IMG/VR virus record: IMGVR_UViG_2541047429_000025
DNA: 9,558 bases
From: a virus
Taxonomy: Duplodnaviria > Heunggongvirae > Uroviricota > Caudoviricetes
Direction: 5' to 3' (one strand)
Made by a program: the position numbers and the translations under genes
The notes under the pieces: generated by a model
Databases searched by the model: none
The model's input: the letters and a program-made list of their open reading frames with translations, nothing else
What the model was told of the DNA's origin: nothing
In this document: positions 8,166 to 9,558 of the stretch, in pieces
Numbering within the stretch: position 1 is the stretch's first letter
How the letters are laid out: every line of letters begins with the position of its first letter

Positions 8166-8750
8166 ATGACCACTTTTACAAAAGAGCAGTTAATCAGTCA
8201 TGTTAGTGAAAATGTAAAGGCGATGAAATTTGCAGTAAAACAGACAGCATTCAAAAATTCTCTCGAGGCAATTGAGTTGGATTTAGCACTGGCCCTTGTT
8301 GCTCAGGCTTCGCTGGAAGCAGAGCCCGTGCTTTATATGAATCGATTTACCGGAAAGACATTCTCACTGGAAGAGCAACCCGGTGCTGATAAGGAACCGG
8401 AAATATACGTGCCGCTATATGCTGCCCCGCCAGACAGCGCCGCCATGCTTCAGGCTGGAAACTTTCGGGAAAAAAAGGGTTCGTCAACCAATAATTTTCG
8501 GGAAATCTCGGAAACGTCAACCAACTATCCGGTAACTCTGGATGATTGGATAAGCTGTAGTGAGCGAATGCCGGATGATGGTCAGCACGTAATTATTTTA
8601 TGTGATGGCGCATTCGTTCTTTATGCGCAATATCGAGACGGTGAGTTTTTTGATGTAGTCCGTAATGGTGATGAATTTTTCGAAACACAGAGCCGCAATG
8701 TAACCGACTGGATGCCGCTACCAGAACCGCCGCAGGAGGTGCGCCAATGA
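8166..8750 (+). CDS. hypothetical protein with DUF551-like C-terminal domain (194 aa)
   Basis: Internal ATG 8166 of ORF 8106..8750 with AAGGAGA 5 nt upstream (the GTG at 8106 overlapping the previous stop is the alternative). The C-terminal WISCSERMPDDGQHVIIL...WMPLPEPP resembles the small domain I recall as DUF551 in lambdoid early-region proteins. Confidence 0.7.
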   Translation: MTTFTKEQLISHVSENVKAMKFAVKQTAFKNSLEAIELDLALALVAQASLEAEPVLYMNRFTGKTFSLEEQPGADKEPEIYVPLYAAPPDSAAMLQAGNFREKKGSSTNNFREISETSTNYPVTLDDWISCSERMPDDGQHVIILCDGAFVLYAQYRDGEFFDVVRNGDEFFETQSRNVTDWMPLPEPPQEVRQ

Positions 8751-8830
8751 TCTGGCCTGAAGCCTTTGCAATTACAGGCGTTGCTATAGCTATTGATTTT
8801 TTAGTATATGTTATTTGTCGGTGGGGGTAA
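8747..8830 (+). CDS. tiny hydrophobic ORF (27 aa), speculative
   Basis: ATG 8747 overlaps the stop of the preceding gene (ATGA); MIWPEAFAITGVAIAIDFLVYVICRWG is a single predicted TM helix. No independent RBS; could be chance. Confidence 0.3.
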   Translation: MIWPEAFAITGVAIAIDFLVYVICRWG

Positions 8831-8865
8831 AAACGTTCGCCGGGATTCACACCAAAGGAGGGAAT

Positions 8866-8970
8866 ATGTCGGATGATATTTCACTGGCAATGGAAGGTGC
8901 GCTGGCTGTTATTGCTGTTGTGGGCGTTTACTGCCTGGTTGTGTTTTTGATGGATCGACTAGGGAACTGA
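8866..8970 (+). CDS. small membrane peptide (34 aa)
   Basis: AGGAGG 4 nt upstream of ATG 8866; MSDDISLAMEGALAVIAVVGVYCLVVFLMDRLGN has one TM helix and charged termini. Below the ORF-track cutoff. Confidence 0.45.
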   Translation: MSDDISLAMEGALAVIAVVGVYCLVVFLMDRLGN

Positions 8971-8979
8971 ATTCATTAC

Positions 8980-8999
8980 GATATGGGAATTCCCATATC
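8980..8999. repeat. perfect 20-bp palindrome GATATGGGAATTCCCATATC
   Basis: Exactly self-complementary, centred on GAATTC, 10 nt after the stop of the 34-aa ORF and just upstream of the hok-type locus. Confidence 0.8.
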
Positions 9000-9089
9000 G
9001 GGTAAAAACGGTTTGCGGTAAAGCGAGAGTTAAGTAGAATTGCTGCGGGTGCTTGAGGCTGTCTGCCTCGGGCATGCCACCGTAAGGTA

Positions 9090-9157
9090 GACAGAGAAAA
9101 GCCCCAGTTAACATTACGCGTCCTGCAAGACGCCTAACATTAATCTGAGGCCAATTT
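9090..9157 (-). ncRNA. possible Sok-like antisense RNA (position approximate)
   Basis: Inferred from hok/sok architecture. On the minus strand, TTGCCT (plus 9187..9192) and TAACCT (plus 9164..9169) are spaced 17 nt apart and would start an antisense transcript across the mok start region. No convincing terminator found; boundaries are guesses. Confidence 0.25.
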
Positions 9158-9158
9158 C

Positions 9159-9371
9159 ATGCTAGACACATGTAGGTTAGCCTCTTACGCGCCAAAAGGC
9201 AAGGAGAAGCAGGCTATGAAGCAGCAAAAGGCGATGTTAATCGCCCTGATCGTCATCTGTATTACCGTCATAGTGACGGCACTGGTAACGAGGAAAGACC
9301 TCTGCGAGGTACGAATCCGAACCGGCCAGACGGAGGTCGCTGTCTTCACAGCTTACGAACCTGAGGAGTAA
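9159..9371 (+). CDS. Mok-like N-terminally extended frame of the hok gene (70 aa)
   Basis: ORF-track ORF starting upstream of and in frame with the hok-type toxin; corresponds to the modulation-of-killing frame of chromosomal hok loci. Whether it is translated cannot be told from sequence. Confidence 0.45.
   Translation: MLDTCRLASYAPKGKEKQAMKQQKAMLIALIVICITVIVTALVTRKDLCEVRIRTGQTEVAVFTAYEPEE
9216..9371 (+). CDS. hokD: Hok/Gef-family type I toxin (51 aa), HokD/RelF-like
   Basis: MKQQKAMLIALIVICITVIVTALVTRKDLCEVRIRTGQTEVAVFTAYEPEE carries the Hok/Gef signature (TM helix, LxTRKxLCE, GxxEVAxFxAYE). Symbol is from recalled similarity to HokD/RelF and Gef, and from Qin-like context. Confidence 0.85.
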   Translation: MKQQKAMLIALIVICITVIVTALVTRKDLCEVRIRTGQTEVAVFTAYEPEE

Positions 9372-9439
9372 GAGACCTGGCGGGGGAGAAATCCCTCGCC
9401 ACCTCTGATGAATCAGGCATCCTCAACGCACCCGCACTT

Positions 9440-9467
9440 AACCCGCTTCGGCGGGTTTTGTTTTTTT
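9440..9467 (+). terminator. intrinsic terminator of the hok transcript
   Basis: AACCCGC-uucg-GCGGGUU hairpin followed by UUGUUUUUUU. Confidence 0.7.
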
Positions 9468-9558
9468 CCTGGCATTCTGGTTTTACAATTCGCACGCCAG
9501 CCTGAACAACTGGCACCTGCTGCGCCAGCAGAGACAACCGATGGCGCACGATACCAAA

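Follow-up and report, generated by a model that had tools for sequence, protein, structure and literature searches.

The window analysed here is a 9,558-nt stretch of DNA from a virus of the class Caudoviricetes (IMG/VR record IMGVR_UViG_2541047429_000025), and positions 9013–9467 carry the genes and regulatory elements of a hok/mok/sok type I toxin–antitoxin locus (Table 1). The toxin, Hok, covers the whole 42-position Pfam profile PF01848 (HOK_GEF) with a score of 83.2 bits (cut-off 22) and is identical to HokD of Escherichia coli K-12 at 50 out of 51 residues (98%). Its ATG (9216) falls 19 codons into a longer open reading frame (9159–9371), in the same frame; this longer frame, mok, is, therefore, an in-frame extension of the toxin, as a first-pass annotation of this DNA had claimed. 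The arrangement agrees with the annotated mokC/hokC and mokW/hokW pairs, and the window Mok is 90% identical to the annotated MokW.

Related loci were retrieved by a protein-seeded scan with a single Hok query and one genome per species, which returned 60 loci. The alignment used for covariation analysis comprised 39 loci from Escherichia, Kluyvera, Photorhabdus, Pantoea, Erwinia, Citrobacter and relatives. Two plasmid Hok-family loci (L008 and L009) and the K-12-like hokC (L030) were left out because their 3′ ends have been replaced by IS186/IS421 or other sequence. The mRNA 5′ end was set by model position 1 of the Rfam family RF01794, together with the GGG start that is invariant in the 39 homologues, and the 3′ end by the position of the terminator. 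In each of the 30 related loci inspected, a −10-like hexamer precedes the G start by 6–7 nt, and CAAGGAG around the hok Shine-Dalgarno sequence is conserved in the alignment. On reading 8700–9558, the coordinates that the first-pass annotation had given for the promoter and for the 5′ and 3′ elements were all borne out. They include the promoter hexamers TTGCGG (9013–9018) and TAGAAT (9035–9040) with their 16-nt spacer, the −35 agreeing with the consensus at only 3 of 6 positions.

Table 1. Features of the hok/mok/sok locus, followed by other features of the window.
Feature	Position	Strand	Basis or remark
hok/mok promoter −35, TTGCGG	9013..9018	+	Read directly; same hexamer in 933W hokW
hok/mok promoter −10, TAGAAT	9035..9040	+	Read directly; 16-nt spacer after −35
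Predicted full-length mok-hok mRNA, 421 nt	9047..9467	+	Starts at G9047
tac (translational activator element), GGGTGCTTGAGG	9047..9058	+	Predicted to pair in turn with local partner, fbi or ucb
3′ arm of metastable nascent-transcript hairpin	9065..9075	+	Partner of tac nt 3–13
Sok antisense RNA, ~71 nt (predicted)	9097..9167	−	15-nt free 5′ tail, long hairpin, GGGGCUUUU 3′ end; sokW mapping
ucb (anti-Shine-Dalgarno), AAGCCCC	9099..9105	+	Partner of mok Shine-Dalgarno in full-length RNA, of tac in shortened RNA
mok Shine-Dalgarno, GAGG	9147..9150	+	8 nt before mok ATG; read directly; invariant in 39 loci
Sok-target hairpin of shortened mRNA	9147..9184	+	mok Shine-Dalgarno paired with dcb CCUC 9181–9184; fold series
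mok open reading frame, 70 aa	9159..9371	+	In-frame N-terminal extension of hok; open reading frame list
sok promoter	9174..9202	−	−35 TTGCCT (9202–9197), 17-nt spacer, −10 TAACCT (9179–9174); read on minus strand
hok Shine-Dalgarno, GGAG	9203..9206	+	Read directly; beside/partly overlapping complement of sok −35
hok toxin open reading frame, 51 aa, HokD-type	9216..9371	+	Pfam and identity to K-12 HokD
G+C-rich 10-bp hairpin of 3′ untranslated region, GAAA loop	9378..9401	+	In all predicted folds; compensatory changes conserved
fbi (fold-back inhibitory element), CCTCAACGCACCC	9421..9433	+	tac partner
Intrinsic terminator	9440..9467	+	7-bp stem (9440–9457), GCTT-type loop, T-run
Perfect 22-bp palindrome, CGATATGGGAA/TTCCCATATCG	8979..9000		Centred on EcoRI site; between small-frame stop and hok −35
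Very small hydrophobic, membrane-helix-like frames, 27 and 34 aa	8747–8830, 8866–8970	+	Just upstream of hok locus
dicB-type open reading frame	338..529	−	Adjoins DicF; typical of Qin-like lambdoid prophages
DicF small RNA, full-length match	900..951	−	76.9 bits (gathering score 48)
RelE/ParE-family toxin and RelB-family antitoxin pair	2624..3102	−	Annotation in 99.6%-identical O157 prophage; by immunity region

In a scan at Rfam gathering thresholds (59 bits for RF01794, 'sok'), positions 9047–9221 of the plus strand matched RF01794 with 113.3 bits over model positions 1–157 of 157. Near-identical copies are annotated as hokD in hundreds of genomes, the lambda-like prophages of O157-type E. 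coli included, and a related locus is present in 4,719 out of 5,426 complete E. coli genomes, at a median of 2 and a maximum of 10 places per genome. We consider it very likely that 9013–9467 holds an intact hok/mok/sok module of the hokD/hokW lineage, and, as a structural interpretation, we are similarly confident that the module is complete and autonomously regulated. It is an ordinary copy of a well-known system and of little value as a discovery: publications already cover the family, the way its RNA folds and its occurrence in lambdoid prophages. It does provide a clean example of a tac/fbi reading made on raw sequence and confirmed through covariation.

The 5′–3′ complementarity with one bulge, which the first-pass annotation had placed between 9047–9058 and 9421–9433, was confirmed on the sequence at both positions. 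The two elements, tac and fbi, pair over 6 + 6 bp (GGGUGC/GCACCC and UUGAGG/CCUCAA) with one bulged C (9427). Folding of the 9047–9467 transcript, which had been put forward as a check of this claim, gave a minimum free energy structure (−175.3 kcal/mol, z = −7.9 compared with shuffles) that contains exactly this helix. Nested 3′ truncations of the window transcript were then folded as a series. In a 30-nt RNA (−18.8 kcal/mol, z = −5.0), tac nt 3–12 pair with nt 20–29, forming the metastable hairpin, and a 114-nt RNA ending at 9160 keeps this 5′ hairpin and places the mok Shine-Dalgarno sequence on ucb. In RNAs with 3′ ends at 9221–9420, tac pairs with nt 53–59 (ucb), and in nearly all of these folds mok GAGG (9147–9150) pairs with CCUC (9181–9184). 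RNAs ending at 9433 or beyond combine tac/fbi with mok GAGG/ucb. The predicted folds match each state of the published hok pathway (PMC9841398). In plasmid R1, the nascent RNA is blocked by a metastable 5′ hairpin. The complete RNA is shut by tac/fbi pairing, with its mok Shine-Dalgarno sequence hidden in a helix with ucb; trimming from the 3′ end leads to a form with tac/ucb and mok Shine-Dalgarno/dcb pairing, in which mok/hok can be translated and Sok can bind (PMC9841398). By comparison with R1, the hairpin at 9378–9401 is the probable protective 3′ stem-loop of the processed mRNA and a likely trimming stop (PMC9841398).

The complementarity might also be a chance match within a G+C-rich 3′ untranslated region, with no role. 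Among 2,000 dinucleotide shuffles of this region, 13 paired at least as well with the 5′ 14-mer, and an inverted-repeat finder did not report tac/fbi, detecting only an unrelated 22-bp palindrome. The bulge, which divides the helix into two stretches of 6 nt, explains why the finder missed it. Since a 12-bp complementarity is, on its own, only moderately unlikely, the case for tac/fbi rests on its conservation and on compensatory change, and conservation in related loci had been set beforehand as the test of the claim. A tac-like 12-mer lies 145–220 nt upstream of hok in nearly all 60 loci, and every intact locus analysed that has a recognisable tac start also has a complementary fbi in the same place, just before the 3′ end. 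Across the 39 aligned loci, tac/fbi is 91% paired, compared to 32–55% when the 3′ partner is slid. Compensatory changes fall at positions 4, 11 and 12. In Photorhabdus and Pantoea, the Escherichia-type GGGUGC/GCACCC is replaced by GGGCGC/GCGCCC (pair 4–405: 27 loci with UA, 9 with CG); Kluyvera and Photorhabdus have GAGA/UCUC in place of GAGG/CCUC, and Citrobacter has a GAAG/CUUC version. Pair counts are lower in columns 7–12 because MAFFT offsets the Photorhabdus loci by one column: the second tac/fbi helix has no bulge there, and the per-sequence duplexes are fully complementary. The complementarity is, thus, conserved with compensatory change and used by the full-length minimum free energy fold. 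Covariation refutes a chance match, to which we give practically no credence.

The alternative partners of tac and the other helices of the pathway are conserved as well. Position 4 of tac also covaries with its partner in the metastable hairpin (UA in 27 loci, CG in 10) and is the bulged base of the tac/ucb helix, which is 100% paired and invariant. In the metastable hairpin, 97% of cells are paired across the alignment, with changes on both sides in three pairs. The helix between ucb and the mok Shine-Dalgarno sequence is 86% paired, and its flanking pairs covary (AU 30/GC 8 and GC 20/AU 9). The four closing pairs of the Sok-target hairpin are standard in all 39 loci (38–39 identical, the rest G-U). 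The changes seen across these alternative helices follow the 'coupled covariation' pattern that Gultyaev, Franch and Gerdes (1997) reportedly described in the hok family.

The antisense gene had been left without a secure position, with 9090–9160 offered as its interval. The predicted RNA lies instead at about 9097–9167 on the minus strand. The sokW RNA is annotated in the records of the Stx2 phages 933W and VT2-Sakai as a 71-nt minus-strand RNA, and it maps to 9167–9097 of the window because these loci align gap-free there. K-12 sokC starts 8 nt inside mokC, the same relative position as the window Sok. The position of the sok promoter is conserved in 39 out of 39 homologues, its −10 ends 6 nt before G9167 and is identical to the −10 of sokW, and the sokW promoter was found to be functional by mutation (PMC8621323). 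The predicted Sok RNA folds with −31.3 kcal/mol (z = −5.4). As read from the sequence, a putative cis-encoded Sok gene, with promoter, 5′ tail, hairpin and U-tail, covers the mok translation-initiation region. Although RF01794 is named 'sok antitoxin (CssrC)', its match lies on the sense strand of the hok mRNA, and Sok itself is encoded on the antisense strand. The model, thus, recognises the hok mRNA leader in its tac/ucb form, and a strand copied from it would mis-annotate Sok.

Among paralogues, no part of the leader varies more than the segment 9140–9182, which comprises the Sok 5′ tail and the mok start, and paralogues of the same genome (e.g. L015 and L025) differ mainly within it. Its exact window variant was found in 1,874 genomes, at a median of one place per genome and a maximum of three. 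This variability and copy number suggest that Sok recognition may be copy-specific.

The window as a whole represents early-region DNA of a lambdoid prophage, and the hok locus occupies the nin region, flanked by replication genes on one side and DUF968/RusA/Q genes on the other. Its closest relatives are the hokD of Sakai Sp6 and other O157:H7 prophage copies, which are 99.4% identical to it over 481 nt. The Sakai copy belongs to 'prophage Sp6; lambda-like phage'; its mok frame carries the annotation ECs_1520 'regulatory protein MokC' and its toxin, in RefSeq, is listed as 'type I toxin-antitoxin system toxin HokD'. The two copies share the nin-region position and the 22-bp upstream palindrome, and differ at three places: a base in the sok promoter spacer, a synonymous Ile codon and the length of the T-run. 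The prophage around the locus is a mosaic, its best O157 match covering 87% of the 9.6-kb window. The hokW/mokW/sokW locus of 933W and VT2-Sakai (Sp5) is 90.8% identical at the DNA level over 434 nt and shares the promoter, tac, ucb, fbi, the 70-aa in-frame Mok and the 71-nt Sok. However, the first 18 nt of the sokW 5′ tail differ from the window Sok at about 7 positions, as does the target around the mok start. The 933W sequence diverges beyond fbi and lacks the window's terminator hairpin, the Hok C-terminus reads TAYEPEE in the window and VDYESEK in hokW, and hokW sits near the right end of the phage genome rather than in the nin region. This locus encodes an experimentally functional type I toxin–antitoxin pair with a 71-nt sokW, in which HokW is toxic and sokW neutralises it, partly via RNase III and Hfq (PMC8621323).

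More distant systems share the same organisation. The R1 hok/sok (parB) locus has the element set, the predicted folding pathway and the Rfam family in common with the window (PMC9841398), whereas its toxin is only distantly similar, HokW being 44% identical to R1 Hok (PMC8621323). The R1 locus is carried by a plasmid and that of the window by a prophage; tac starts with GGGUGC in the window and with GGCGC in plasmid-type loci (L008), and the window Sok hairpin has an insertion of ~16–20 nt relative to the R1 type. Alignment with gef (hokC) and hokD, which had also been proposed as a check, recovered the shared elements in K-12 copies that are IS186-disrupted or truncated, respectively. K-12 hokC/mokC/sokC is organised in the same way, with an in-frame mok/hok, a sok start 8 nt inside mok and an identical tac. 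Its Hok is 84% identical to that of the window, its Sok hairpin is short, and the locus is chromosomal and disrupted downstream by IS186, which replaces fbi. In L009, L013, L030 and L003 (K-12 hokC), insertions of the IS186/IS421 family are found at one place, between the 3′ untranslated region hairpin and fbi. This site looks like a recurrent insertion hot spot at which fbi is removed.

K-12 hokD (relF), in the cryptic prophage Qin, raises the possibility that the window copy is a similarly decayed relic, that is, a toxin gene without regulation of its own, expressed, if at all, through read-through from neighbours. The near-identity of the two toxins would fit such a history, as would the RefSeq annotation, which has only a hokD coding sequence here and neither mok nor sok. 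K-12 hokD keeps hok, fbi and the terminator, but it has none of the parts upstream (promoter, tac, ucb, Sok target, mok start and sok gene), and it is inactive (PMC5630033). In the alignment, its homology to the window begins ~14 nt before the ATG, directly after relE. Because this homology stops so close to the start codon, the K-12 copy is the truncated relic and the window the intact form. The whole upstream leader, with promoter, tac, ucb, mok start and sok gene, is present in the window and was lost in K-12 only, and, unlike in the IS186/IS421-flanked copies, no insertion sequence or frame disruption occurs. The relic reading is, thus, refuted by the sequence, and we regard it as hardly credible. 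The first-pass annotation had contrasted an autonomous locus with a passenger toxin gene, and the contrast holds: the structural elements of a hok/sok locus are all present and evolutionarily constrained. The window shows the form of K-12 hokD before its decay. The RefSeq/PGAP annotation of hokD alone should be corrected accordingly, mok, sok and the regulatory RNA elements being intact.

The complete, autonomously regulated module would work as follows. The weak promoter at 9013–9040 would produce the 421-nt mok-hok mRNA, whose 5′ tac would be held in a local hairpin during synthesis. Once the RNA is complete, tac would pair with fbi near the 3′ end and ucb would mask the mok ribosome-binding site, giving a stable molecule that is neither translated nor bound by Sok. 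Slow 3′ trimming back towards the 9378–9401 hairpin would remove fbi; tac would then move to ucb and the mok ribosome-binding site would enter the Sok-target hairpin, making mok, and hok coupled to it, translatable. The ~71-nt Sok (9167 to 9097, minus strand) would normally prevent translation, its free 5′ tail pairing with the target and the duplex being destroyed. If Sok synthesis stopped, the stored mRNA would yield the membrane toxin Hok. In this scheme, 3′ processing, translational coupling, RNase III decay and toxicity are taken from work on R1 and hokW and would apply here by analogy. Transcription of both RNAs, 3′ processing of the mRNA and RNase III cleavage of the duplex were described for R1 (PMC9841398) and, in part, for hokW (PMC8621323). 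The term 'post-segregational killing' is a description of the family type and not a demonstrated role of this locus.

Several observations weigh against this interpretation. Neither promoter matches the consensus well (8/12 for hok/mok and 7/12 for sok), and a consensus sigma-70 scan of both strands of 8900–9558 at a threshold of 9/12 matches reported no site. Support for the promoters rests, therefore, on positional conservation and on homology to sokW. An RNA cut at 9424–9428 still folds its 5′ end onto a nearby 3′ segment, so the switch depends on where trimming stops and needs it to reach at least ~9420. Moreover, the chromosomal hokA, hokB and hokC were reported to show neither post-segregational killing nor activation by rifampicin, according to work cited in a preprint (bioRxiv 10.1101/2025.08.07.668861), and the up to 10 related loci per genome could buffer one another.

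The last of these observations would also fit a locus that is structurally intact and physiologically silent, that is, a passenger, selfish or neutral, which is conserved without ever being activated, a conclusion already drawn for chromosomal hok loci of E. coli. Possible reasons for silence are a constant excess of Sok, cross-protection by paralogous Sok RNAs or a need for RNA editing to obtain a potent toxin. With regard to editing, a G follows the TAC codon for Tyr47 of hok, which creates a TACG TadA motif (9354–9357) within a TTACGAA that is invariant in 39 out of 39 aligned loci, and a second UACGAA spans the Val32–Arg33 codons (9310–9313). TadA edits TACG in the mRNAs of hokC, hokD and hokE, recoding Tyr to Cys (PMC5630033), and the Tyr47 motif suggests that full toxicity may need A-to-I editing. 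However, selection on the regulatory RNA structures, both purifying and compensatory, is clear across genera, and the 90.8%-identical hokW/sokW is active. There, mitomycin C eliminates sokW and induces HokW in a way that depends on RecA, and deletion of the hokW locus halves phage release, hokW assisting lysis after induction (PMC8621323). The median of one copy per genome of the Sok-tail/target segment argues, in addition, against blanket cross-protection. We find permanent silence rather unlikely, albeit worth retaining as an alternative: the module may be active on induction or loss, or intact but normally silent. Its role in the prophage would probably be help with lysis on induction and/or stabilisation of the prophage. 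Genes of the hok family are about four-fold enriched in prophages (bioRxiv 10.1101/2025.08.07.668861).

A more specific and rather improbable version is that prophage induction could activate Hok directly, the module then serving as a lysis or abortive timer that is coupled to induction and private to this prophage. The locus is co-oriented with the early rightward (pR-type) transcript in the nin region, with the sok promoter head-on against it. Antiterminated read-through would then occlude the convergent sok promoter and give 5′- and 3′-extended hok RNAs that escape the tac/fbi lock. The privacy of such a timer would come from the paralogue-specific Sok 5′ tail, of which genomes have a median of one copy even though up to 10 hok loci coexist. 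In Sp5, sokW is lost and HokW gained in dependence on RecA, which is compatible with this idea (PMC8621323).

The remainder of the window is consistent in gene order with its prophage assignment, comprising an exonuclease, dicB, DicF, RelE/ParE-RelB, a repressor/cro-type region, YdaT, replication genes, DUF1627, DUF977 and hokD. In the matched O157 prophage, DUF968 and RusA (and, in Sakai Sp6, also the antiterminator Q) lie just past the position of the window's end. With the RelE/ParE-RelB pair and the hok locus, the 9.6-kb window has two toxin–antitoxin modules in addition to DicF/DicB. A link to the Qin relB-relE-hokD arrangement through the RelE/ParE toxin (2624–2911, minus strand) was considered and rejected, this protein having no similarity to K-12 RelE. 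Near-identical E. coli-type hokD copies were also retrieved from very short contigs or taxonomically unrelated records, namely Acinetobacter idrijaensis (L032), Xanthomonas pisi (L039), a Candidatus Scatousia metagenome-assembled genome (L073) and the Actinobacillus phage vB_Apl-pPE4 (H66). These are probably contamination or mis-assignment and not true hosts.

Further features lie between 8747 and the hok promoter. Neither of the two very small frames upstream of hok has a Pfam or NCBIfam match, and the 34-aa one is annotated in Sakai as the hypothetical protein ECs_5710. The 22-bp palindrome that follows them, of a length for which none is expected by chance, occurs among the fetched loci only in Sakai Sp6 and might serve for protein binding or form a hairpin at a transcript end.

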